64,000 bases of DNA, from NCBI GenBank assembly GCA_024686575.1, contig GCA_024686575.1_4863.1. One strand, 5' to 3'. The translations under genes and the position numbers were made by a program. Shown here in pieces: positions 10,347 through 64,000 of this stretch. Under the pieces are notes generated by a model. It did not search any database, was not told the DNA's origin, and saw only the letters and a program-made list of their open reading frames with translations. Origin of the DNA: a phage. Each line of letters begins with the position of its first letter. Position 1 is the stretch's first letter.

Positions 10347-10613
10347 TTACGCCAGTGTAATGTGGTACTTATCAATGTCAGGGAATCGCTCTTTGATCAT
10401 CCCGCAGAACATATCTAGCACCGGATCAGTTTTTGCGGCCTTCTCCATCTCAGGAAAAATACTACGCAGTGGCACGCCAGGGTACAGTCCTGCCGTTTTC
10501 TTAAGCTCTTCTTTATACTTTGCCAACAGAGATTTAACCCCAGCTGTCTTCGGGAAGCCGCACCCTGCGACCCCATCGTTTTCAAAATAGATTACTGCTT
10601 CAACACTAGACAT
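10347..10613 (-). CDS. hypothetical small protein
   Basis: Track ORF 10347-10631; the second in-frame ATG (at 10613) has an AAGGAG Shine-Dalgarno 8 nt upstream, so the shorter 88 aa form is preferred. Confidence 0.55.
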   Translation of the reverse strand: MSSVEAVIYFENDGVAGCGFPKTAGVKSLLAKYKEELKKTAGLYPGVPLRSIFPEMEKAAKTDPVLDMFCGMIKERFPDIDKYHITLA

Positions 10614-14176: not shown

Positions 14177-15181
14177 TCAGAGAATCATCCCAACGAGTGC
14201 TACCCCTGCAGCCAAATACGCGGGAATGGATTTCAAGAACTCCGAGCTATCTTTTCGCTGATAAGCTCGGGACTCGTATTGGTCTTTACGAACATCGGAA
14301 CGCAACTTAAGCTCATTCGTCTGGATTGCGTTAAGGGTGTTAATCCTCTCCTTCTCCAGCGCCAGATTATTAAGTTGCGTACGATAATCGAGGTCTTGCC
14401 GATTCTTTTTCTCATCGAGATCTTGCAACTTGGCCTGATACGTGGCTTCCAGCTTCGCACGAACATCTCGCAACTCTGGAATGTTATCGAGCCACCGATA
14501 ACGCCTCGCTTCATCTTCAGATGCAAACGCCCGGAACGGGGACATCGGGTCATCGAAAGCGTACATTATCATCTTACCCCCTTCGACACACTCCGCACCA
14601 CCGATTACCATGTAAATACCCTCGTCGTAATACTTCGATCGAATCGGTTCGACTTCCAACATCGTTGTATAGAACCTCAGCCACTTTAAAGGTGCTGGGT
14701 CTTCGTACTTCTGCACAACTACCACGCCCAAGGCAAATTCTTTACGATCCCCTCCTGGCTTACCAATAACCTCAGAATCGAGTTTTACTGGTTGAGTAGA
14801 GAAAGCCATTCCTAGCTTCTTCAACACCACCAAGTCGCCTCGCATTAACGCACCGATATCATCAACTACATACATCAGCGTTGTTTCGCCGTTCGTAGTT
14901 AATTCCTTACATATCTGCGCATACTGCTTTGGCGAATGTGCGTCGCGCAAACCAGATAGGTTAGCACCGTTCGCAAACACCGTATAGGTCACGTAAATCA
15001 CAATCCCAAATTCCGCCGCTGTGGTGGACGACGGGGCTAAAACAAAATGCCCGCCACTGAGTTCAGTGACGTAAATGGGAAACCCGGTATTATTTTCGTA
15101 CGTGATAGTCTTCGACACGGCACCACGGTGCATGGGCCGCTGGGTTAGCGTTGGCTGAACGTCTAAATCATAACGGTTCAT
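14177..15181 (-). CDS. hypothetical coiled-coil protein with C-terminal hydrophobic anchor
   Basis: Track ORF begins at a TTG (15205); first ATG at 15181 (MNRYDL...); C-terminal region rich in heptad-like K/E/L/Q repeats, ending in AAGVALVGMIL. Confidence 0.6.
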   Translation of the reverse strand: MNRYDLDVQPTLTQRPMHRGAVSKTITYENNTGFPIYVTELSGGHFVLAPSSTTAAEFGIVIYVTYTVFANGANLSGLRDAHSPKQYAQICKELTTNGETTLMYVVDDIGALMRGDLVVLKKLGMAFSTQPVKLDSEVIGKPGGDRKEFALGVVVVQKYEDPAPLKWLRFYTTMLEVEPIRSKYYDEGIYMVIGGAECVEGGKMIMYAFDDPMSPFRAFASEDEARRYRWLDNIPELRDVRAKLEATYQAKLQDLDEKKNRQDLDYRTQLNNLALEKERINTLNAIQTNELKLRSDVRKDQYESRAYQRKDSSEFLKSIPAYLAAGVALVGMIL

Positions 15182-15220: not shown

Positions 15221-15235
15221 AGATAATATCTATCT
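15221..15235 (-). promoter_or_regulatory. conserved motif 2 (plus AGATAATATCTATCT; inverted repeat AGATA-N5-TATCT)
   Basis: Exact 15-mer present four times in the window; here about 45 nt upstream of the ATG at 15181. Confidence 0.5.
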
Positions 15236-16025: not shown

Positions 16026-16040
16026 AGATAATATCTATCT
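16026..16040 (-). promoter_or_regulatory. conserved motif 2, copy downstream of the 766 aa gene terminator
   Basis: Exact 15-mer 41 nt upstream of the ATG at 15985, immediately after the terminator U-run. Confidence 0.5.
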
Positions 16041-18958: not shown

Positions 18959-18972
18959 TTTAAGGATGCTCC

Positions 18973-20535
18973 ATGAATAGTAAAATGATGTTGATAACCG
19001 CCTTAGCCGCACTGTATACAGAATCTATGCTGACGGACCCTAGCAAGGATCATGATGTCATAAGAAAAGTTCTGATGCAGATCAAGCTTCCGGAATATGC
19101 GGAAGATGGCGAAGAGCGCTTTGCACTCATCGAGATCAAGGACATTATCACATCTATCATAGACGGCGGCATGGAATACGACCACGCGAGCGTTATGAAG
19201 CGCTTGAAGCTGGCCACCACTCAAGTACGTCCTCTATACGATACGATTACCAAATTCCTCGAAGACGATTTGCCCGAGGAAGAAGACAAACGTACCGAGC
19301 ATCTTAATCGACAACTGTCTCAATATTATTTCCAATTACGTCAATGTTTACAGAGCGTCGAACTCAAAACAAAAATGGGTCGCGCGTTCGGAGCATTGAA
19401 TGGAACTGAGACACGTGTTGATCTGAACACCGCAGTGCTCGAACTCAAAGAGGCGTTATCTACGTTCGGTGAACGCTCTCATAATAAGATTCCATCATTG
19501 GTCGGTGAGCTGGTTACAGATAATCGTGCTCCGTTTGTTAAAGTGTTCGACTCGATTAACAAGAAAGCTGCAGGTAATGGTTTGCAGACGGGCTGGAAAG
19601 CCATTAACCAAATGCTCGGTTGTAACAAAGGGATTACCGAAGAACTGTGGCTAATGCCAGCGTTACCTTTTAACTGTAAGTCTTTGTTCAGTCTCTTGCT
19701 GAGCCTATCGATTCCTATCTTCAACACGCCTGAGAAAGTAATGGCGGATGTGAAGGGCACACTGCAACCAATTATTCTTGACTTGAGTTTAGAAAACGAA
19801 CTCGACGTTAACTTAGCTTACGGCTATCAAGCTCTGTACGGTCATTTTGAAGGACAAGTTCCACAGATGACCATTTCACAGGATGCAACCGCTGAAGAGA
19901 AGTTAGCACACACAACAGCAATGTCTGATTACCTCTGTGGTAAGATTCGCGCAAACGGTTGGGACTACGTTTTCCAAAAGCACACCAACTCTGATTTTAA
20001 AGTGCACTACATCAACGACCTTATTCTCGACTTACGTCGTCGCGGTTATCATGTTGTTGGCATTCGCGCAGACTACTTAGGCACAATCAGCAAAGCAGGA
20101 CACGGCAACGGTATTGCCGGGAGTGATATCAAAGAAATTTATCGTATTGCTCGTAACATTCAAGTGGTGCGCAACCGTGGGTTCTTAATTGCCCCACACC
20201 AGATTTCCCCAGAAGGTAAGCGCTTAAAAGCGTTAGACCCGGTAGGCTTCTGTAAGAACTTACCTGGTCGTGGTCTTTACGATAGTTGTTCGAGCCTTGA
20301 TAACGAGGCCGATGGTGAAATGTATTTTAACAAGCGTGTGGTCAACGGCCATAGCTTCTTAGAAGTTCAACGCGGTAAACACCGCACCATTATCGATACT
20401 AAAGAATCTTATCACTACACAGTGATACCTTTCCAGGATGTAGGCATCCTGCCTTGGGATTGTGATAAAGAAGAAACCGTAACAGCGTCGTCTATCAACT
20501 TCTTCACCGGTGGAATGGGTGATGATTTGTTCTAA
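18973..20535 (+). CDS. hypothetical protein
   Basis: 520 aa ORF; AAGGA Shine-Dalgarno 7 nt before ATG; hairpin after stop. Confidence 0.7.
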   Translation: MNSKMMLITALAALYTESMLTDPSKDHDVIRKVLMQIKLPEYAEDGEERFALIEIKDIITSIIDGGMEYDHASVMKRLKLATTQVRPLYDTITKFLEDDLPEEEDKRTEHLNRQLSQYYFQLRQCLQSVELKTKMGRAFGALNGTETRVDLNTAVLELKEALSTFGERSHNKIPSLVGELVTDNRAPFVKVFDSINKKAAGNGLQTGWKAINQMLGCNKGITEELWLMPALPFNCKSLFSLLLSLSIPIFNTPEKVMADVKGTLQPIILDLSLENELDVNLAYGYQALYGHFEGQVPQMTISQDATAEEKLAHTTAMSDYLCGKIRANGWDYVFQKHTNSDFKVHYINDLILDLRRRGYHVVGIRADYLGTISKAGHGNGIAGSDIKEIYRIARNIQVVRNRGFLIAPHQISPEGKRLKALDPVGFCKNLPGRGLYDSCSSLDNEADGEMYFNKRVVNGHSFLEVQRGKHRTIIDTKESYHYTVIPFQDVGILPWDCDKEETVTASSINFFTGGMGDDLF

Positions 20536-20543
20536 CGAACACT

Positions 20544-20561
20544 GGGGAGCTTAGGCTCCCC
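20544..20561 (+). terminator. hairpin after plus gene (weak terminator candidate)
   Basis: Stem GGGGAGC/GCTCCCC with TTAG loop 9 nt after the stop of 18973-20535; no clear U-run. Confidence 0.3.
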
Positions 20562-20851
20562 TACGGGCAGTTTATGCGTCCTGCCGAGATCAAAAAAAAT
20601 ACGACGAACTATTTATATGCGTGGAATTACCCGAGTGCTAGAACACTCGGGTATAATTATTCCAGGCAAATATTCCTGTTATCTCTTGTTGAGTATTATC
20701 TCACCTCCTAGTCCTTTAATGGTACGGGTGGAAGTCTGCGGTTGGCGGGTAACCTCTTGCAGACGTTGTTGAAAAGCGACTTGTTTCAGCTGTTGCTGAC
20801 GCAGTTGTTGCATAAAGGTATTCATGTTAACCTCTAGGTGGATGTGAATAA

Positions 20852-20890
20852 GCTCTCTCCTTCGGGAGAGAGCACCTTTTATTTTCTTTT
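20852..20890 (+). terminator. rho-independent terminator (plus strand)
   Basis: Stem GCTCTCTCC/GGAGAGAGC with TTCG loop followed by CCTTTTATTTTCTTTT. Confidence 0.65.
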
Positions 20891-20932
20891 CGGAAAATAA
20901 ATATAAAGCCCTCTTACCCGAAGGTAAGAGGG
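20880..20932 (-). terminator. rho-independent terminator (minus strand)
   Basis: Stem CCCTCTTACC/GGTAAGAGGG, UUCG loop in minus-strand RNA, T-rich run on minus strand; directly downstream of gene 20939-21799. Confidence 0.7.
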
Positions 20933-20938
20933 GTACTA

Positions 20939-21799
20939 CTACGGTTTATAATCAACTTCGTTGATCTCACCGCAAGCCGGACAAGCAATGTTCATTGTCT
21001 GCGAAGTGTAGCGATGGGTTCTCGGTACTGTAGCGACATGGTTGCGGTTACAGCCGGAACACGTCCAACCGACCACTGGTGCCTTCGATTGTTTCGGGGC
21101 AGGAGTGTCTTCTTTTAACAATGCGACTACCGCGTGAAATTTACGAAGTTCTGCGTTAACATGCGCTTCCCAGTCGGCGTCCAAACGCGCCGTGAACCAA
21201 CGTTGAATCTTCTGGCCAAGGCCGTCTTGATTTTCTTCTTCATGGGACATCACAAACTTGAGATTTGCGCGACCCCACTGCACAACGTTCTCTACTTTAA
21301 TCCCGTCTACGGTGTCGCTGATTGGCGTATAGTTAAAAGTTGGATAGGTGAGATAACAAGCTTCAGCTGTTGCAAAGACCGTATTGCCTTCAAACAGCGC
21401 CATGGCCTCATCGCCCTTAGCATCCTTCTGTGCGGCTTCCAATCGTGGGCAATGGAAACCTTCAAGTTGCTGGATTTTGGTCGTTAGCGCATTGATACCC
21501 TGCAGCACAGCGATACGCTTTTTGCTGTCTGTAATGGTTGCCATTACCTTGCACAACGCGCGCGAGATAGCGCTATACATTGACGTTTTGCGGTTTTCAT
21601 CGAGGAAACGCTCTTGCTGCTCCAGGTCGTAAGAAGACAGGCCGTAGCTCTGCCCTTCGACCAACACGACGTAAGTACGACGTTTGTCGCGGTCCAGCTG
21701 GACAATGGCCGCATCGGTTAACGGATCGCTAGCCAATACTTCGTGGTCGGGAGGTAGGGGGAAATCTGAACTTTTGATGAAATCAGTAATGCTGTACAT
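20939..21799 (-). CDS. hypothetical protein with C-terminal Cys4 zinc ribbon
   Basis: 286 aa; C-terminus WTCSGCNRNH...NIACPACGEI (CxxC-N19-CxxC); terminator immediately downstream. Confidence 0.7.
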   Translation of the reverse strand: MYSITDFIKSSDFPLPPDHEVLASDPLTDAAIVQLDRDKRRTYVVLVEGQSYGLSSYDLEQQERFLDENRKTSMYSAISRALCKVMATITDSKKRIAVLQGINALTTKIQQLEGFHCPRLEAAQKDAKGDEAMALFEGNTVFATAEACYLTYPTFNYTPISDTVDGIKVENVVQWGRANLKFVMSHEEENQDGLGQKIQRWFTARLDADWEAHVNAELRKFHAVVALLKEDTPAPKQSKAPVVGWTCSGCNRNHVATVPRTHRYTSQTMNIACPACGEINEVDYKP

Positions 21800-21801
21800 T
21801 T

Positions 21802-22218
21802 TTAGTCCTTAAGAGAGTTAATAAAGTCATCTAAACTAATATCACGGAATGGGAAGTAAACACCTTCAAGCGGGATCGTGTAGTGTTCACTAATGGCACG
21901 TTGCCAATCCAGAACAGTTGCGGGGTAGTTCACAACCTCAAAGTTAGGATGCGTAATTGGCGGAATTGCGTTGTAAACATAGCCGTTGATATTTTTCGAT
22001 GGGAACGCTGCACGGAACTTCGGCTCCATGTAGAACATTTCCTCTTTTACTTCCTGGCCTTCCCAGAAACGATAACCGCCCTTACCGTCAGGAATATAAA
22101 TCGCCTTGTCACGGGGTATAGGGGAATCCTTGGATAGCGGAACAAATCGTCCGTACTGGTCAAGAACCATCCAGTCGGTGTCATTCTTTAAATACTTTTG
22201 GAGCTTCTCATTAATCAT
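21802..22218 (-). CDS. hypothetical protein
   Basis: 138 aa ORF; AAGGAA Shine-Dalgarno upstream of ATG at 22218. Confidence 0.65.
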   Translation of the reverse strand: MINEKLQKYLKNDTDWMVLDQYGRFVPLSKDSPIPRDKAIYIPDGKGGYRFWEGQEVKEEMFYMEPKFRAAFPSKNINGYVYNAIPPITHPNFEVVNYPATVLDWQRAISEHYTIPLEGVYFPFRDISLDDFINSLKD

Positions 22219-22648: not shown

Positions 22649-22791
22649 TAGCCGCGACCTGTACACATGGCAACAGAGTTACCGTTATCGATGCACTTGT
22701 TGTAATCTTGAGTTACAGTGATGGACAGTACCGCGAAAGCAACAACAGCAACGATGGCAAAGATGGCACGTTTATGGTTACGAGTTAACAT
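22648..22791 (-). CDS. hypothetical small membrane protein (below ORF-track size cutoff)
   Basis: 47 aa hand-translated ORF MLTRNHKRAIFAIVAVVAFAVLSITVTQDYNKCIDNGNSVAMCTGRG; AAGGAG Shine-Dalgarno 8 nt upstream; conserved promoter-like motif about 55 nt upstream. Confidence 0.4.
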   Translation of the reverse strand: MLTRNHKRAIFAIVAVVAFAVLSITVTQDYNKCIDNGNSVAMCTGRG

Positions 22792-22842
22792 GGCAATACT
22801 CCTTTAGATTAATAGTCGATTGAGTTGATAGATTGTCTTCTA

Positions 22843-22868
22843 TCACCTAGGTAATATATATCTGAAAT
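22843..22868 (-). promoter_or_regulatory. conserved promoter-like motif 1 (minus-strand reading contains TATATATTACCTAGGTGA)
   Basis: 26-nt exact repeat TCACCTAGGTAATATATATCTGAAAT shared with 31344-31369; lies between a terminator and the first gene of a small-gene operon. Confidence 0.55.
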
Positions 22869-22984
22869 TATTTTTATTCAGAGTACACCCTCTATAACGC
22901 TCTCAAACGCGTTTTGAGAGCTTTTATCACTATAGAGGGCGTTCTACCGTTAGAGTGGCTTTAGAAGGTTGTGAGTGCGTTTAG
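22869..22984 (-). other. structured non-coding region with nested palindromes (regulatory element or small RNA candidate)
   Basis: CCCTCTATA...TATAGAGGG encloses the palindrome GCTCTCAAACGCGTTTTGAGAGC; followed by three TTAGAG-type repeats; sits between a terminator and promoter motif 1. Confidence 0.4.
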
Positions 22985-23025
22985 AGGGCTAAAATAAAGA
23001 GACCTGGTCTCACAAGGAGACCAGG
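22985..23025 (-). terminator. rho-independent terminator
   Basis: Stem CCTGGTCTC/GAGACCAGG followed on minus strand by TCTTTATTTTAG. Confidence 0.65.
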
Positions 23026-23032
23026 CACACAT

Positions 23033-25728: not shown

Positions 25729-27084
25729 CTACCTCGCGTATTTCAAAATCACGTAGACCATCGGGACGTAATAGAACTGACTGTCCTTCGGTAAAGCCAG
25801 CACCAATTCTGCTAAACGCGCAGCCACTTCACTAGGTACCGGTTGTTTGTTCAGATACAGGTACAAACAATGCTCCAGAACCGAGCTGTACGAGCCGCTA
25901 TAGAACGTTTCGCTTAACAGGTAGGGTTTATACGTCAACGGCAGAAAAGCCACCATATCCTCGCCTGCGTTGCCCTGATACTCAGGGAACATAACCGGTT
26001 CGAATGCTTCGAACTCTGGCCACTCCCCATCGTACGTTGCCAACTGACGAATCTGTGATGTAAAGAAGCGCGTTGAACTGAACTGTGACCACGCGATGGT
26101 GTTGCGGGTCTGCATCGTTCTGAAAGTGCGCGGGTTAACTGCGCTGCATTCTTTCTCGACGTACGGTAGTAGTCCTGGCTGTTGATTTAACAACACCGTG
26201 AACAGCGTTTCGATATCTTGCACAGGTTTCGGCGGGTGTGGGTAAATACGGATATCTTTACCAACGGTTCGAAGGCCGATAGCCTTCACAAACATCGCCA
26301 AGAAGACGTCGTAGTAGCCACCTGCCTTTAACCCGTCGAGTTTCCAGTCGCGTGGATAAGCAAGGGTTTCTAAACTGGTATCGTAGAAACGGCGAACAAA
26401 CGTCGTCTCAATGTCCTTAATGCGGTCTCCCAGCTCCAGGAACGTACGATACTCGTTGGGGGTCAGTAAGGTATCACCACCGGTCCACGCGCGCTCACGG
26501 ACGTAATGGAGCGTTCTCACAGTGCACAGACGAATCGTCTCTGCAATCTGCGGTGTAATCTCGTACAACATCGTGTAACGTATCTGGTACGTTGCAATTT
26601 TGTTGTTCGACATTCGGGTAACGGCAGTGATGTTAAACAGTCCGTGTCGATGGTCGCCTATCGGCGCAACAAAGAAGTCACCCTCGTTCGGTGTAATCGA
26701 TGCTACCAGGGTCGACGTCCCGGTCAGTTCGAAAGTCTTACGTTGTTCGTCCTGCGTACGGTCGAGCGGTGCGTTAACACGTAATGACAGATTAACAATC
26801 TTAAGCAGCTGTTGCGTAGGGCTGTCATTCTGAGTATCGAACATCGTCTTCGGATCGTTGCGACCCGACAACGCGTGATAAAAATCAACCGGCCATTCAG
26901 AACCTTCGTTGTATTGCAGGAGATACTGTTTCGGAATCCTGTCGAAGTCCGTTACCGTGGTGCGGGTTGGAATCGTTACCAAGTTGCTGGCTTCTTTTAC
27001 CCCGTCCTGCGGTTTATTGATAATCGGAATCTCAGGTTCAACAGGAACGAATTTAGTATCACCCCTCTTGTTCGCCTTGAGCAT
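25729..27084 (-). CDS. hypothetical protein
   Basis: 451 aa ORF; overlaps upstream gene by 26 nt. Confidence 0.7.
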   Translation of the reverse strand: MLKANKRGDTKFVPVEPEIPIINKPQDGVKEASNLVTIPTRTTVTDFDRIPKQYLLQYNEGSEWPVDFYHALSGRNDPKTMFDTQNDSPTQQLLKIVNLSLRVNAPLDRTQDEQRKTFELTGTSTLVASITPNEGDFFVAPIGDHRHGLFNITAVTRMSNNKIATYQIRYTMLYEITPQIAETIRLCTVRTLHYVRERAWTGGDTLLTPNEYRTFLELGDRIKDIETTFVRRFYDTSLETLAYPRDWKLDGLKAGGYYDVFLAMFVKAIGLRTVGKDIRIYPHPPKPVQDIETLFTVLLNQQPGLLPYVEKECSAVNPRTFRTMQTRNTIAWSQFSSTRFFTSQIRQLATYDGEWPEFEAFEPVMFPEYQGNAGEDMVAFLPLTYKPYLLSETFYSGSYSSVLEHCLYLYLNKQPVPSEVAARLAELVLALPKDSQFYYVPMVYVILKYAR

Positions 27085-31343: not shown

Positions 31344-31369
31344 CTCACCTAGGTAATATATATCTGAAA
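31344..31369 (-). promoter_or_regulatory. conserved promoter-like motif 1, second copy
   Basis: Identical 26-mer, with partial conservation of the next 15 nt; located after the paralog-1 terminator and about 50 nt upstream of the ATG at 31302. Confidence 0.55.
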
Positions 31370-40997: not shown

Positions 40998-41043
40998 AAA
41001 GCACTACCCTCTCCCGAAGGAGAGGGTAGCCTTTTATTTTATT
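40985..41043. terminator. bidirectional rho-independent terminator
   Basis: 11-bp stem CTACCCTCTCC/GGAGAGGGTAG flanked by A-run upstream and TTTTATTTTATT downstream, between convergent genes. Confidence 0.8.
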
Positions 41044-46435: not shown

Positions 46436-46490
46436 AACAAAAAAAGAAAGGCCTCTCTACCCTAGGGTAGAGAGGTACTTTTATTTAGCC
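46436..46490. terminator. bidirectional rho-independent terminator
   Basis: Palindromic stem CCTCTCTACCC/GGGTAGAGAGG flanked by A-run and T-run, between convergent genes. Confidence 0.8.
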
Positions 46491-46998: not shown

Positions 46999-48297
46999 TT
47001 AGGTGATGTGGAATTTAGGGATGTACTCTTTAACCACGGTTTCACGACCGTGCATCGCACCCATTGCAGTGGTCATAACGTTCGAGAAGCCGGATGAGAT
47101 ATCCGCAGCGATTGCCCGTGGCTCTTCTGCTTTGTGTGCAGAGGCGCACGCCGCACAACAGTCTACGTGACCTTGCTGACATAAGATGGGTCGGCGGAGT
47201 CGAACAACTTTACCGAATTGCGTTTTCAAATACTCTTCGGTGAGTTGGGTAACTTTACCGTTAATCATCGCGTTCATGCCAACATAACGCTTGTAGTTAT
47301 ACTGGTTAATTACAAGTGCATGAGTCAGTTTTGTCCCGCAATCTCCAGGCACGATTTTGTGGTTCTGGAAGATCATCTGGATGATACGTACCTGCTCACC
47401 ACCCTTAGCGGTTTCTGCACCACGCATGAAGGAACCTTCACGAGTGTCATTGAACTTCTCTACCAGGTACTTCATCCCGGTCTGATCAACTTCCATCAGA
47501 CTCGTTGGGATTAAGGTAAAATCTGCACCTTCTTTAAAAGCGGTCTGAATACCATACATCAGCATCAGCTTACGGCGACGCATACGCGCTTTAGGCGAGC
47601 TGTAGAACTCAACGGACTGGTCGCCACTCAACCACTCTTTATCAAGTTCGTCGAGAGCTTTTTCAATCATAACGATAACCGCAGGGTTATCCAGTTCGTC
47701 TTTGTGCTTCAACAGCAACGCATCACGTACCTTATACGCGTCAGGATGCGTTGTAAGGCTTCTAATTGTTCCTGTTGGGGCAATCCCACGACACAACGGA
47801 GCAAGCTCGTGTAGACCCCCTACAAAGCGTCCTATCATGTATGGCCGAATCGCGTCTTCGTTGTCTGGATCGGTGTCATCGTATTCCACACATCGTTCGT
47901 ACATCTCCTTACGGTAGGCTAGCGGGTCACGGGACTCTGCCAGATACGGGAGACGGGTACCGAATGCGTAATAGATAGCAATCCAGTTAAAGACATAGCG
48001 ACCCACGGTAGTCGGAATGGGACCAGCTAGACCTGGGTACATCTCAGGACGCAATTCAAACTGCTCTTCCGGCACGAACAGCTCTTCATCTTTTTTGCAC
48101 CCTTCAATCGGCACCCATTTAATTTCTTCGTTTTCCCAGTAGTGGGGCAAGCCGTCAATGTAGTTCAGGTCGTATTGCTCAGGTGGCTCACCTTTTTCAT
48201 TAAAGATTGCCACGTTGAAAACCGCAATACGCCACACCAGTCTACGCCAAGCTTCTGCTTTACACGCAGCGACCAGATAATCAATCTTGTTCATCAT
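46999..48297 (-). CDS. hypothetical protein with C-terminal cysteine cluster
   Basis: 432 aa ORF; C-terminal HVDCCAACASAH cluster; no confident family assignment. Confidence 0.7.
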   Translation of the reverse strand: MMNKIDYLVAACKAEAWRRLVWRIAVFNVAIFNEKGEPPEQYDLNYIDGLPHYWENEEIKWVPIEGCKKDEELFVPEEQFELRPEMYPGLAGPIPTTVGRYVFNWIAIYYAFGTRLPYLAESRDPLAYRKEMYERCVEYDDTDPDNEDAIRPYMIGRFVGGLHELAPLCRGIAPTGTIRSLTTHPDAYKVRDALLLKHKDELDNPAVIVMIEKALDELDKEWLSGDQSVEFYSSPKARMRRRKLMLMYGIQTAFKEGADFTLIPTSLMEVDQTGMKYLVEKFNDTREGSFMRGAETAKGGEQVRIIQMIFQNHKIVPGDCGTKLTHALVINQYNYKRYVGMNAMINGKVTQLTEEYLKTQFGKVVRLRRPILCQQGHVDCCAACASAHKAEEPRAIAADISSGFSNVMTTAMGAMHGRETVVKEYIPKFHIT

Positions 48298-49634: not shown

Positions 49635-51605
49635 CTAGCCAATATCGGCGTATTGATCCAGCAAGAATTTCTGAATCTCGGACACCACTCGAGAGAGCAC
49701 GAAAAAAACCCTGTCCGGACTGATGGTAACAATACCGCGATACAGACCGTCTTTCTCGCCGTGTGTTTTACCACACGCCGGGCAGCGTTTACCCATGTAA
49801 CCGAATACCGCTAAACGTGTACGTTCGTTGTATTCAGCAATCGCGTTTTCAAACTGACCAACGTAGATACGGTCGGAAGACAGCTCTTCCAGCATCTCAA
49901 CGATTTTCGCTGTGTCGGTTTCAGTTTGTGGGATAACCTGCATTTCACCGTTTACTTCACGTTGCTCATTAACGGTGATAGATTTCACCATGTGAGCGTA
50001 ACGCGTTAAGCGACGGGCTTCTGCAGTTAAACGCATATGGGATTCACGTTCACGCTCGGTAGCAAATTCAGACAGCGCTGCCGTAGTTGACGCGTTAACG
50101 TCTTCAATCCACTTCTCGGTGGAGTCAAAGAAGCTACCCAGGGTAGAACGGCCAAATTCAACACGCACGTCGTGGTATTCAAATACCGAAGATGGGTCAA
50201 CCTGATGCGCTGCGATATATTCGCGCTGTTCTGCAATAGAAATCACTGGACGCTCAGTACCGCGTTGACGTGCCCACAGTTGTTTCTGCAGGTCGCTAAA
50301 CAGACCGGAACCGAAACGGATACAGCGTGCGATATTCAGCTTCACATCTTCCTGCTGGTTGCAGCCGTCTTCGCCACACATCAGCGTCCATGGAATACCA
50401 GACGGCCACTTCGCCTGCAACGGACCCAGAATAACCAGCCAGTAGTCAGCCAGATCAATGGTATCCAACAGCACCGTACGCAGATCGTTACCCGCACAAT
50501 CGATGGTTGCTTCGGTAACAAACTGAAGTGCGAATTCAACCATGTGGCGCATGTACACGCCAGAAGACGACGACAGCATCAAACCATAGGTCTGCATACC
50601 GATGGTCGCAGTTTCCAGCGTTAGACGCATGTCGAAGTCACAAAGGTCGCGTTCATGCGGTGCGCGGAAGCCCACGTAGATACCTGTGGCCGGCAACCAA
50701 ACCATGTTCGGAATACCCGACTTACGTACACGACGCAAAGCAGCCAGCGCGCCAGTGTGCATATTGTCACGCGGTGCAATAGCACCAGATGCCTTGCCGT
50801 CCGGCAACATCACGCGCTGTTCCCAAGCGGTATCACCACGATCCAGTGCACCAGCAAATGCCGGTACGCCGTCCTGTAGACGTGGCGGGGTCATGTTCAA
50901 AGCACGATAGATGTCGTCGTAAACCTGTTGCTGTTCAGGGCTTTCGAATAGCAGCCGACCGTCTTTCGGTGAACGTTTAATGTTACCGAGGAACTTTTGC
51001 AGGGAGTCTGCAATGATGTTAGGGTCTTGTTTCAGACCAATCAACATCTTCGACTGTGTCAGAATACGATCGGCTTCATCCTCACCCATTTCGGCGGTTT
51101 CAGCTAAATGGGTATTACCGAAGTCAATCTCACGCATCTGTTGTTGTTCCGGAACCTTCGGTGCAGCATCTTCCATTTCTTTTACAGCCGGCTGTGCCGG
51201 TGCAACCGCTTCCGGAGCTTTTGGCTGCGGAGCAGGTTCTACCACAGGCGCTTTCTCTACTACCGGTTCCGGGGCACGATGTAGGTGCTCCTGCACCTGT
51301 TCAGAGAAAGTCTGAGCTGCCGGTGGTACAGGCGCAGCAGGTTCAGGCAACGCCTCTTCTACAAACGTCGGACGCTCAAGCTTAGGCTCCGGACGATGAT
51401 AGTGTTGGTGATAAACTTCTTCTGCACGGGCAAAAGAAAAATCGGGATTGGCTTGTTTAATAGCCATGATGATTGCATCCGAGGTCGCGTCATCAGGCAC
51501 GGTCGGAAGAATCATCTCTTGTTGGGTAGCAGCCGCCACAGGGGCTGGCTGGTCGGGATTAGGGCGACGGGCATTACCCGGACGCTGATCTTGGATCTCA
51601 GACAT
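49635..51605 (-). CDS. hypothetical protein with Pro-rich N-terminal region and C-terminal CxxC pair
   Basis: 656 aa; residues about 60-140 are Pro/Ala/Glu/Val rich (PEPAAPVPPAAQ...PAPQPKAPEAVAPAQPA); C-terminal GKRCPACGKTHG. Confidence 0.7.
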   Translation of the reverse strand: MSEIQDQRPGNARRPNPDQPAPVAAATQQEMILPTVPDDATSDAIIMAIKQANPDFSFARAEEVYHQHYHRPEPKLERPTFVEEALPEPAAPVPPAAQTFSEQVQEHLHRAPEPVVEKAPVVEPAPQPKAPEAVAPAQPAVKEMEDAAPKVPEQQQMREIDFGNTHLAETAEMGEDEADRILTQSKMLIGLKQDPNIIADSLQKFLGNIKRSPKDGRLLFESPEQQQVYDDIYRALNMTPPRLQDGVPAFAGALDRGDTAWEQRVMLPDGKASGAIAPRDNMHTGALAALRRVRKSGIPNMVWLPATGIYVGFRAPHERDLCDFDMRLTLETATIGMQTYGLMLSSSSGVYMRHMVEFALQFVTEATIDCAGNDLRTVLLDTIDLADYWLVILGPLQAKWPSGIPWTLMCGEDGCNQQEDVKLNIARCIRFGSGLFSDLQKQLWARQRGTERPVISIAEQREYIAAHQVDPSSVFEYHDVRVEFGRSTLGSFFDSTEKWIEDVNASTTAALSEFATERERESHMRLTAEARRLTRYAHMVKSITVNEQREVNGEMQVIPQTETDTAKIVEMLEELSSDRIYVGQFENAIAEYNERTRLAVFGYMGKRCPACGKTHGEKDGLYRGIVTISPDRVFFVLSRVVSEIQKFLLDQYADIG

Positions 51606-59713: not shown

Positions 59714-59728
59714 AGATAATATCTATCT
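59714..59728. promoter_or_regulatory. conserved motif 2 in divergent intergenic region
   Basis: Exact 15-mer between the RNAP beta-like gene start (59683) and the plus gene start (59750); could serve either or both. Confidence 0.5.
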
Positions 59729-63203: not shown

Positions 63204-64000
63204 TTAAGAATTAAACCATTCAACTTCTTCTAACTTGCGACGTGCATTCAACACCATAAACTCCGCCAGGCTATTGTGCAGTGACAAGTGAGGTATATAG
63301 TTTGGCTGATCCGTCTCACACTTCAGCAGCGCAGCTGCTTCTGGTGTAGCCCTGAGATGGAACAGATACGGGTTGATGTGATCCTTGTGTAACAAGGTCA
63401 GTGATTCCCGTGGTGTAGATTGCGGTTCGAGATTACGCGGGTTGCGATACTCCTGAAGATAATATCTATCTAAATCTGCTTTGAGTTCAGATCGAATTGG
63501 GTCGGCTGCATAACCGGCAGACATCTCAGAACGCACCATATTGCAACTTAACAGTTGCGCAACGTCATACATTCCATAATTGAGATAAGTTGCCTGTGCT
63601 AACGCCATGCCGTAGCGAAACGCTTCTGGTCCACATTCGGTATACGTCTTATAATGCGCGCTACGATGGAGTGCTAATGCGACTAACCATTCGTGGAGCG
63701 TATAGACAGGACCGTCGTGTGTTGCCAGTTGCGAATCAATCAATAACTTAACATCTGCTGGAGCGGCATTATCCAGGCGCATTGTTTTCAAGAAAGAGCG
63801 GTATTCTTTAAATACGTACTCGGTACGGACGTATTCTTTCATCTGGGCAGGAGAACGTGCCTGCACCAAATCCATGGCGTTTATCTTACCCTTTTCGCCA
63901 TTGAATATCACACTTTCTGGATGCGCTTTTAACAGCACCGGCTGGTTAGAGATTTTGTTTGCAAAACCTGTTTCAATCTCTTGTTTAACCAGAAAATACA
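63204..64000 (-). CDS. hypothetical protein, 5-prime partial (continues beyond window end)
   Basis: Track ORF starts at a GTG at 63938, but the frame stays open to the window end; contains an internal copy of the AGATAGATATTATCT motif. Confidence 0.55.
   Translation of the reverse strand, partial: YFLVKQEIETGFANKISNQPVLLKAHPESVIFNGEKGKINAMDLVQARSPAQMKEYVRTEYVFKEYRSFLKTMRLDNAAPADVKLLIDSQLATHDGPVYTLHEWLVALALHRSAHYKTYTECGPEAFRYGMALAQATYLNYGMYDVAQLLSCNMVRSEMSAGYAADPIRSELKADLDRYYLQEYRNPRNLEPQSTPRESLTLLHKDHINPYLFHLRATPEAAALLKCETDQPNYIPHLSLHNSLAEFMVLNARRKLEEVEWFNS
63457..63471 (-). promoter_or_regulatory. conserved motif 2, intragenic copy
   Basis: Exact 15-mer inside the coding sequence of 63204-64000 (encodes DRYYL), about 270 nt upstream of the next gene start at 63191. 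Confidence 0.35.

Follow-up and report, generated by a model that had tools for sequence, protein, structure and literature searches.

Several features of the locus considered here have described counterparts in phiKZ and other jumbo phages. In phiKZ, the late promoter core is T(-3)ATG(+1), with the G as the start site (PMC4666361), and this core is recognised by the non-virion RNA polymerase (nvRNAP) (PMC4666361, PMC7598289). Early promoters, used by the virion RNA polymerase, have been described in jumbo phages that encode RNA polymerases (RNAPs) (PMC7598289), and related jumbo phages are known to have both intergenic small RNAs (sRNAs) and bidirectional terminators (PMC11512511). Here we describe positions 20536-20938 of a 64,000-nucleotide (nt) stretch of phage DNA (NCBI GenBank assembly GCA_024686575.1, contig GCA_024686575.1_4863.1), referred to as the window in the following, where a small minus-strand gene of the family PHROG 18219 lies between two convergent genes. 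This small gene is already in the databases as a hypothetical protein, and the remaining features of the locus are standard transcription punctuation. We read their combination, with a probability of roughly 0.75, as a compact accessory-gene cassette that has been inserted at a boundary between converging transcription units in an SPN3US-like jumbo phage.

The small gene and its family

The reading is built on the small open reading frame (ORF), its ribosome-binding site and the two genes that enclose it:

20679-20825, minus strand: gene for a basic protein of 48 amino acids (aa), PHROG 18219; product MNTFMQQLRQQQLKQVAFQQRLQEVTRQPQTSTRTIKGLGGEIILNKR
20831-20835, minus strand: Shine-Dalgarno sequence AGAGG, 5 nt upstream of the ATG
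18973-20535, plus strand: DnaB-like replicative helicase, the left boundary gene (PF20307 divDNAB, E-value 1.2e-124; phrog_3213, E-value 4.5e-201)
20939-21799, minus strand: hypothetical protein of 286 aa, the right boundary gene (phrog_10180, E-value 8e-97), with a C-terminal CxxC...CxxC zinc ribbon

The product, which includes the pieces TIKGLGGEIILNK and QPQTSTR, matches the PHROG 18219 profile from end to end (E-value 1.5e-26, residues 1-48 on profile positions 1-48 of 48) and is identical over its full length to ULF48335.1 of Salmonella phage SaP7. The ORF is annotated as a coding sequence (CDS) for a hypothetical protein in SaP7, SPN3US, Huxley (gp84), pEa_SNUABM_29 (pEa29), SPAsTU and pSal-SNUABM-04, and the order of helicase, small gene and phrog_10180 gene is found in six annotated phages and five metagenomic contigs, spanning Seoulvirus, Machinavirus and uncultured relatives. 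The position of the Shine-Dalgarno sequence is likewise kept in relatives, while the sequence itself varies (GGAG, GAGG, AAGGA).

A profile search for the family returned 23 distinct sequences, all from jumbo-phage contigs of ~240 kb or fragments of these. Twenty-two of them are 47-49 aa long, the sole exception being P0029 with 44 residues. Identity within the family drops to ~40%, and eight residues are invariant in all 23 members (M1, Q20, R21, K37, G38, G41, I43 and K47), as is a family core of the form QR...KGLGG(D/E)I. The proportion of nonsynonymous differences (pN) is below that of synonymous ones (pS) in every pair with measurable synonymous divergence, and the ratio of the corresponding substitution rates (dN/dS) lies between 0.09 and 0.56 wherever dS is unsaturated. 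Finally, paralogue pairs are conserved at the protein level despite a nucleotide identity of just 52-56%. These comparisons show that the ORF at 20679-20825 is a genuine, conserved protein gene under purifying selection.

The first-pass annotation of the window, made from the letters alone, had described the region as gene-poor, as the longest non-coding stretch and as the site of a 43-aa minus-strand micro-ORF with an AGAGG Shine-Dalgarno sequence. The micro-ORF is there, with 48 rather than 43 aa, and so is the Shine-Dalgarno sequence (20835..20831, read along the minus strand). The small peptide that had been entertained for the region corresponds to this conserved gene, and conservation across related phages is evident both in the synteny and dN/dS values of the ORF and in the intact hairpins described below. 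What does not hold is the description as gene-poor or non-coding, given the CDS annotations in relatives: the region is the longest stretch of the window without an ORF of at least 60 codons, and counts as its longest non-coding stretch only if ORFs below 60 aa are ignored. In the SaP7 annotation, the small CDS splits it into gaps of 143 nt and 113 nt.

All family members are hydrophilic and very basic, with isoelectric points (pI) of 10.6-12 and net charges of +5 to +9; the protein of the window has a pI of 11.8, a grand average of hydropathy (GRAVY) of -0.87 and a value of -0.37 in its best 19-residue hydropathy window, and hydropathy analysis finds no hydrophobic or transmembrane segment. 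AlphaFold2, run on the family alignment, gives a helix over residues 3-26 followed by a C-terminal beta-hairpin around KGLGG, with a predicted local distance difference test score (pLDDT) of 69. With moderate confidence, we predict a soluble fold of an N-terminal helix and a C-terminal beta-hairpin. An exhaustive hidden Markov model search of 1.84 billion representatives returned only the family itself and three low-complexity matches, sequence searches of Pfam, NCBIfam and the PDB came back empty, and Foldseek against the PDB and BFVD yielded no structural analogue save a family member. A resemblance to ribosomal protein uL29 (PF00831) in the pattern QFNxRxQ, seen as a PDB profile match with an E-value of 0.16 and in one of the 23 family members at an E-value of 0.042, was rejected on an hhalign probability of 2% over 18 columns. 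Since the AlphaFold model is only moderately confident, we go by charge alone in proposing that the protein most likely binds nucleic acid or an acidic partner; most likely, it is a dispensable early or host-interaction factor.

The phage itself is placed by the 601 nt around the locus, which are 99.0% identical to SaP7 and 93-98% identical to about 30 other Seoulvirus genomes, including SPN3US, SEGD1 and the SPFM series; Erwinia jumbo phages give weaker matches. Because of these identities, we assign the window to a Seoulvirus, that is, an SPN3US-like, phiKZ-related jumbo phage.

Within this group of phages, the small gene comes and goes. In Erskinevirus (phiEaH2, Stratton, Asesino), the same helicase and the same neighbour, there of 290 aa, occur without it, separated by a gap of ~110 nt that holds one bidirectional terminator and a conserved helicase-proximal block. 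SPN3US, Proteus phage 7 and the SPLA phages, on the other hand, carry an extra ~250 nt and two tandem paralogues, SPN3US_0071 (AEP83904.1) and SPN3US_0072 (AEP83905.1), which share 41% protein identity. The allele of the window combines features of both copies. Its nucleotides 1-125 are identical to the SPN3US_0071 copy at 124 of 125 positions; from nucleotide 126 to the stop, it agrees with that copy at 15 of 22 positions, as against 19 of 22 for the allele type of a near relative (L018), which occupies the SPN3US_0072 position. The flank downstream of the stop also matches those of the SPN3US_0072 copy and of L018 (SPN3US tandem-copy segment compared: L002 2770-3175). The allele is a recombinant with an SPN3US_0071-type body and an SPN3US_0072-type tail, joined inside the KGLGG-coding core, and such a chimera would be the expected outcome of a ~250-nt deletion by recombination between tandem paralogues. 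Because of its absence from Erskinevirus, its variable copy number and this recombinant allele, the cassette is accessory, gained or lost between genera and present in one or two copies. The family as a whole is specific to the Seoulvirus/Machinavirus lineage.

Hairpins and terminators

The small gene is flanked by four hairpins (hp1-hp4), numbered from the right boundary gene towards the helicase, and by two associated elements:

20544-20561, no strand assigned: hp4, GGGGAGC-TTAG-GCTCCCC, 8 nt past the helicase stop; no U-tract on either strand
20628-20653, no strand assigned: hp3, TACCCGAGTG-CTAGAA-CACTCGGGTA, 10-bp stem and 6-nt loop without U-tract, 25 nt 3' of the stop of the small gene
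20652-20657, plus strand: TATAAT hexamer, overlapping the 3' arm of hp3; fortuitous
20852-20889, plus strand: intrinsic terminator, hp2 (stem-loop 20852-20873) and U-tract, GCTCTCTCC-TTCG-GGAGAGAGC followed by ACCTTTTATTTTCTTTTC
20878-20901, no strand assigned: AT palindrome made by two opposed U-tracts, TTTATTTTC-TTTTCG-GAAAATAAA
20893-20932, minus strand: intrinsic terminator, hp1 (stem-loop 20909-20932) and U-tract, CCCTCTTACC-TTCG-GGTAAGAGGG followed by CTTTATATTTATTTTCC

Covariation was assessed on 4-9 sequences per hairpin, which were taken from Seoulvirus, Machinavirus and uncultured relatives and represent 3-5 distinct stem variants in each case. Across the four hairpins, none of 241 stem cells is broken, and 25 of the 36 stem positions show compensatory double changes (9/10 in hp1, 4/9 in hp2, 7/10 in hp3 and 5/7 in hp4), a pattern which shows that all four are maintained by compensatory substitutions. 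Hp4 lies within a block of ~65 nt that is also conserved in Erskinevirus, that is, in phages without the small gene.

In a scan for GC-rich stem-loops with an adjoining U-tract, hp1 is picked up on the minus and hp2 on the plus strand, and hp3 and hp4 fail; the raw terminator count is not significant in itself (5 found, 2.5 +/- 1.8 expected), unlike the conservation of the stems. Their U-tracts, the orientation of their UUCG loops and their G.U wobbles lead us to assign termination on the minus strand to hp1 and that on the plus strand to hp2. In hp1, loop and U-tract are in minus sense, and G.U wobbles occur in this sense only, in four lineages. In hp2, both are in plus sense, and what would be an internal C/A mismatch in the minus sense of the Machinavirus (Huxley) hairpin is a U.G pair in the plus sense. 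Seen in minus-sense RNA, hp2 is a 5'-proximal stem-loop that precedes the ATG of the small gene by 28 nt. Together with the opposed U- and A-tracts, hp1 and hp2 form a near-palindrome of 78 nt, which is why a relaxed Rfam search gives only sub-threshold, miRNA-precursor-like matches on this double hairpin; at the gathering threshold, Rfam has no match in the whole window, and no tRNA or tmRNA was found.

Several suggestions of the first-pass annotation are thereby confirmed: the hairpin after the plus-strand gene is hp4, the proposed back-to-back terminators are found at 20852-20873, followed by a T-run on the plus strand, and at 20932-20909, followed by a T-run on the minus strand, and the transcription-unit boundary is convergent and has strand-specific terminators. 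Its inverted repeat around CTAGAA is hp3, with arms of 10 bp instead of 8 bp. The TATAAT that it had placed next to this repeat is present too, overlapping the 3' arm, and turns out to be neither conserved nor accompanied by a -35 partner.

Within hp3, the top of the stem is invariant (GTG/CAC), the lower part covaries and the 6-nt loop is variable. The loop is even inverted between close relatives: it reads CTAGAA in the window (20638-20643) and TTCTAG in SaP7 (L001 2739-2744), which accounts for four of the six differences between the two phages over the 601 nt. Other relatives provide further reverse-complement loop pairs (TTACAG/CTGTAA and CTCGAA/TTCGAG). As the loop varies and inverts, loop-specific recognition is argued against, and a boxB-like, loop-binding protein is unlikely. 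No further copy of hp3 was found in the window, and membership in a dispersed repeat family was rejected. A structural role is in line with the variable loop: hp3 probably stabilises the 3' end of the small mRNA or serves in its processing, which we propose as a guess, and possibly forms the 5' stem-loop of a plus-strand RNA.

Elsewhere in the window, convergent genes share one bidirectional terminator of 40-60 nt. The junctions at 10493-10554, 40998-41038 and 46436-46484 each consist of a single GC-rich hairpin between an A-run and a T-run, and a typical terminator tail of this phage is TTTCTTTTTTT. Because these junctions are single bidirectional terminators, we attribute the extra hairpins of the present locus to the inserted cassette.

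A separate observation concerns a divergent relative (L011, Logan contig SRR27258056), in which the spacer between small gene and helicase measures ~400 nt (L011 1640-2038) as against ~140 nt. It contains several additional hairpins, one of them with a U-tract, a further plus-strand TATG that abuts a hairpin, and no obvious ORF.

Transcription across the locus

The gene stops that face the region lie at 20535 (helicase, plus strand) and 20939 (286-aa gene, minus strand), and the latter belongs to the last gene of a minus-strand operon with an early-promoter-like motif at its head. This motif, 15 nt long and AT-rich (AGATAGATATTATCT or AGATATATATTACCT), occurs 25-45 nt upstream of gene starts at six sites, from which a matrix was built:

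15221-15235, 16026-16040, 22849-22863, 31351-31365, 59714-59728 and 63457-63471, minus strand: early-promoter-like sites

There are 7 matches to the motif where 0.9 are expected, and the six sites score 32-39 bits, compared to at most 14 bits elsewhere. The motif agrees with what has been described for early promoters of the virion RNAP in jumbo phages that encode RNAPs (PMC7598289), and is probably the early promoter of Seoulvirus. The matrix finds no such site in the region (best score 1.8 bits) or in the spacer between the two SPN3US copies, so that an early promoter of its own was rejected for the small gene, which seems to depend on read-through or on an unrecognised promoter.

In the model that we propose, hp1 (20909-20932) would end the early-type minus-strand operon that is headed by the site at 22849-22863. 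The small gene would be expressed by read-through of hp1 or from an unrecognised promoter, and its short mRNA would be bracketed and stabilised by hp2 on the 5' side and hp3 on the 3' side. From the other direction, hp2 (20852-20873) would terminate plus-strand transcripts. As hp4 has no U-tract, hp2, which lies beyond the small gene, is the first canonical plus-strand terminator past the helicase stop, and plus-strand transcripts should cross the small gene in antisense. Helicase-side transcripts most likely do so: they would continue for ~320 nt beyond the helicase stop, cover the small gene completely in antisense and probably dampen it once the plus strand is active.

The plus strand also carries two motifs that resemble phiKZ late promoters:

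20573-20576, plus strand: TATG-1, candidate phiKZ-type promoter core; context GTTTATGCGTCC
20592-20599, no strand assigned: A8 tract as read on the plus strand (T8 on the minus), with a length of 8-11 nt in every relative, 20 nt upstream of the G of TATG-2
20616-20619, plus strand: TATG-2, candidate start of a plus-strand antisense RNA of ~265 nt; context ATATGCGTGGAAT

The sequences examined from Seoulvirus, Machinavirus and Erskinevirus all retain TATG-1, which is missing from L011, the most divergent relative, in which another sequence stands in place of the block. TATG-2 accompanies the small gene in all relatives that carry it, always 7-10 nt upstream of hp3. Two plus-strand micro-ORFs of 45 and 51 aa, whose ATGs lie inside TATG-1 and TATG-2, were rejected, since neither their frames nor their stops are conserved and the length of the A-run varies. 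TATGs were counted between the genes of the 64-kb stretch, using the sequence of SaP7, which is 99% identical. Only those at 20573 and 20616 are on the plus strand, as opposed to 12 on the gene-sense strand; in a control of 50 kb from Huxley, however, there are 7 sense and 9 antisense TATGs, so that the asymmetry is not replicated and genome-wide avoidance of antisense TATGs was rejected as proof of promoter function. An asymmetry of TATGs within genes can be explained by codon usage. As Huxley shows no general avoidance, the promoter call is based on local conservation only.

From these motifs, a dedicated cis-antisense RNA could be started by a phiKZ-type promoter at TATG-2 (G 20619) and/or TATG-1 (G 20576), a reading that we regard as possible, if rather unlikely, and the form that the small regulatory RNA of the first-pass annotation might take. 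It would be a non-coding plus-strand RNA of ~265-310 nt, with hp3 as 5' stem-loop and its end at hp2, fully complementary to the small mRNA including the Shine-Dalgarno sequence and the AUG, and would allow a stage-specific switch-off of the protein; in Erskinevirus, TATG-1 would yield an sRNA of ~75 nt. Such an RNA would account for the retention of both TATGs amid varying neighbouring bases, for the constant spacing between TATG-2 and hp3, for the dedicated plus-strand terminator beyond the ORF and for the singularity of the two plus-strand TATGs among the intergenic ones of the window, and it fits with the plus-strand ORFs being unconserved, their frames shifting with the length of the A-run. 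A near-identical CTTATGCGTGG is moreover found upstream of a minus-strand gene, in a 136-nt intergenic gap near the 3' end of the window (63801-63936 in SaP7-derived numbering, which may be slightly offset from window coordinates). The phiKZ nvRNAP requires only TATG and an undefined downstream sequence (PMC4666361), and the sRNAs and bidirectional terminators of related jumbo phages (PMC11512511) offer a precedent. Yet a TATG is just 4 nt long, the strand asymmetry fails in Huxley, TATG-1 has no AT-rich upstream element, use of the phiKZ motif by an SPN3US-type nvRNAP is an assumption by analogy, and read-through from the helicase mRNA accounts for the plus-strand terminator without any extra promoter. 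A broader version, which would make the locus a conserved switch between sense and antisense in jumbo phages that form a nucleus, with an RNA that starts at TATG/hp3 shortly past the helicase gene and ends at the UUCG-loop terminator, is speculative and, in our judgement, unlikely to be right. If it were, this RNA would base-pair along the entire mRNA of the basic mini-protein, which evolves fast and varies in copy number, and would set the time at which the protein is made; the ~75-nt Erskinevirus product would be a free sRNA.

The other readings of the locus are far less probable. Most type I toxins are hydrophobic and have a transmembrane segment. The geometry at the locus would suit a type I toxin-antitoxin-like pair, in which the mRNA of a small toxic peptide is matched by an overlapping antisense RNA: the ORF is small, antisense transcription converges on it and stable stem-loops stand at both ends of the mRNA. 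The 48-aa protein, however, is hydrophilic (GRAVY -0.7 to -0.96, no transmembrane segment), the antisense promoter is putative, and the phage is strictly lytic, with an early-type operon as context, all of which makes this pair very improbable. It is even harder to maintain that nothing in the region is coding and that it is a cluster of terminators or an sRNA locus, in which 48 codons happen to be open by chance. The ORF may be short, Gln-rich and free of known domains, but its near-constant length, invariant C-terminal motif, dN/dS below 1, retained Shine-Dalgarno sequence and paralogues conserved as protein at 52-56% nucleotide identity already contradict this view. Lastly, the TATAAT abuts a perfect 10-bp palindrome and could be taken as the -10 box of a host sigma-70 promoter, with the inverted repeat as a repressor site. 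We give this next to no credence, and the lack of conservation already contradicts it: the hexamer differs even within the species, SPN3US having GGGTAAGAGTTA in its place, and is also absent from Huxley, pEa29, SPAsTU and others. A scan of 19500-22000 for sigma-70-like sites (-35/-10 hexamers spaced by 16-18 nt) returned none, the TATAAT having no -35 partner; the hp3 stem varies by compensatory pairs, a pattern typical of structures in RNA or a single strand, whereas a sequence bound by a protein would be fixed; its loop flips orientation between near-identical phages; and phiKZ-like phages transcribe independently of host RNAP (PMC4666361). A replication origin was rejected as well, there being no change in GC skew at the locus.

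The accessory-cassette reading, which we prefer, has its own difficulties. Its weakest step is the transcription of the small gene past a good terminator, hp1, which it leaves unexplained. We can only guess at the roles of hp3 and hp4, both devoid of U-tracts; outside its family, the protein is without homologue, domain or structural analogue, and its structural model is of moderate confidence. Moreover, the literature searched, which did not include the SPN3US proteomics paper, contained no transcript, ribosome or proteome data for the small gene, no report on the expression of SPN3US gp71/gp72 and no Seoulvirus transcriptome.

Two side observations concern gene boundaries in the window. Only 14-26 nt (window 18959-18984) separate the helicase, whose start is at 18985 in the SaP7 annotation, from a divergently transcribed 174-aa gene that precedes the major capsid gene, so that the promoters of both must sit inside neighbouring coding sequence. 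Furthermore, SaP7 annotation gaps of more than 200 nt elsewhere are open reading frames, with the exception of a 242-nt gap at 22791-23032. The SaP7 gaps matching 14507-14721, 26845-27058, 48043-48280 and 51516-51597 of the window can be read through in the frame of the downstream gene, which in two cases stays open even past the stop of the upstream gene; these four are likely mis-called start codons or overlapping or extended genes rather than intergenic DNA.

Comparison with known systems

Little has been charted of the small proteins and antisense RNAs that jumbo phages make. The present cassette, which comprises a basic 48-aa protein, defined terminators and possible antisense control, is cleanly delimited and dispensable at least in the Erskinevirus lineage, and with natural knock-outs (Erskinevirus), duplications (SPN3US) and recombinant alleles (the window) at hand, a functional test should be easy. 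The locus further supplies strand-resolved examples of terminators and a candidate early-promoter matrix for Seoulvirus. We consider what is new at the locus a modest addition to known kinds of phage genome punctuation, which leaves the current understanding unchallenged.

The small gene belongs to the same family and occupies the same position as SPN3US_0071 and SPN3US_0072, SaP7 ULF48335.1 and Huxley gp84, and nothing sets it apart at the level of the PHROG 18219 family; its allele is a recombinant, with a body of the SPN3US_0071 type and the tail and flank of the SPN3US_0072 position. Its terminators share GC-rich stems, tetraloops, strand-appropriate U-tracts, a conserved structure and a place between converging genes with the back-to-back or bidirectional terminators of phiKZ and 201phi2-1 (PMC11512511). 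Unlike those, they are two separate mirror-image hairpins, and the plus-strand one lies beyond an embedded minus-strand gene instead of beside the gene that it serves. With the phiKZ late promoter, the locus shares the TATG motif, in one of two cases together with an A-rich tract ~20-27 nt upstream and a conserved downstream element; both TATGs are candidates, and no plus-strand gene follows either of them. Finally, the arrangement recalls moron-like cassettes, in which a small gene with its own flanking terminator or stem-loops sits between conserved genes. Like these, the present cassette is found in some genera and missing from others, varies in copy number, is flanked by hairpins and sits precisely where a terminator junction would be, whereas no promoter of its own is recognised and its carrier is a virulent jumbo phage, not a temperate one. 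What appears to be new is the way in which the cassette is built, with covarying hairpins on either side, together with twin terminators that are each specific to one strand, an allele of chimeric origin and the implied antisense overlap.

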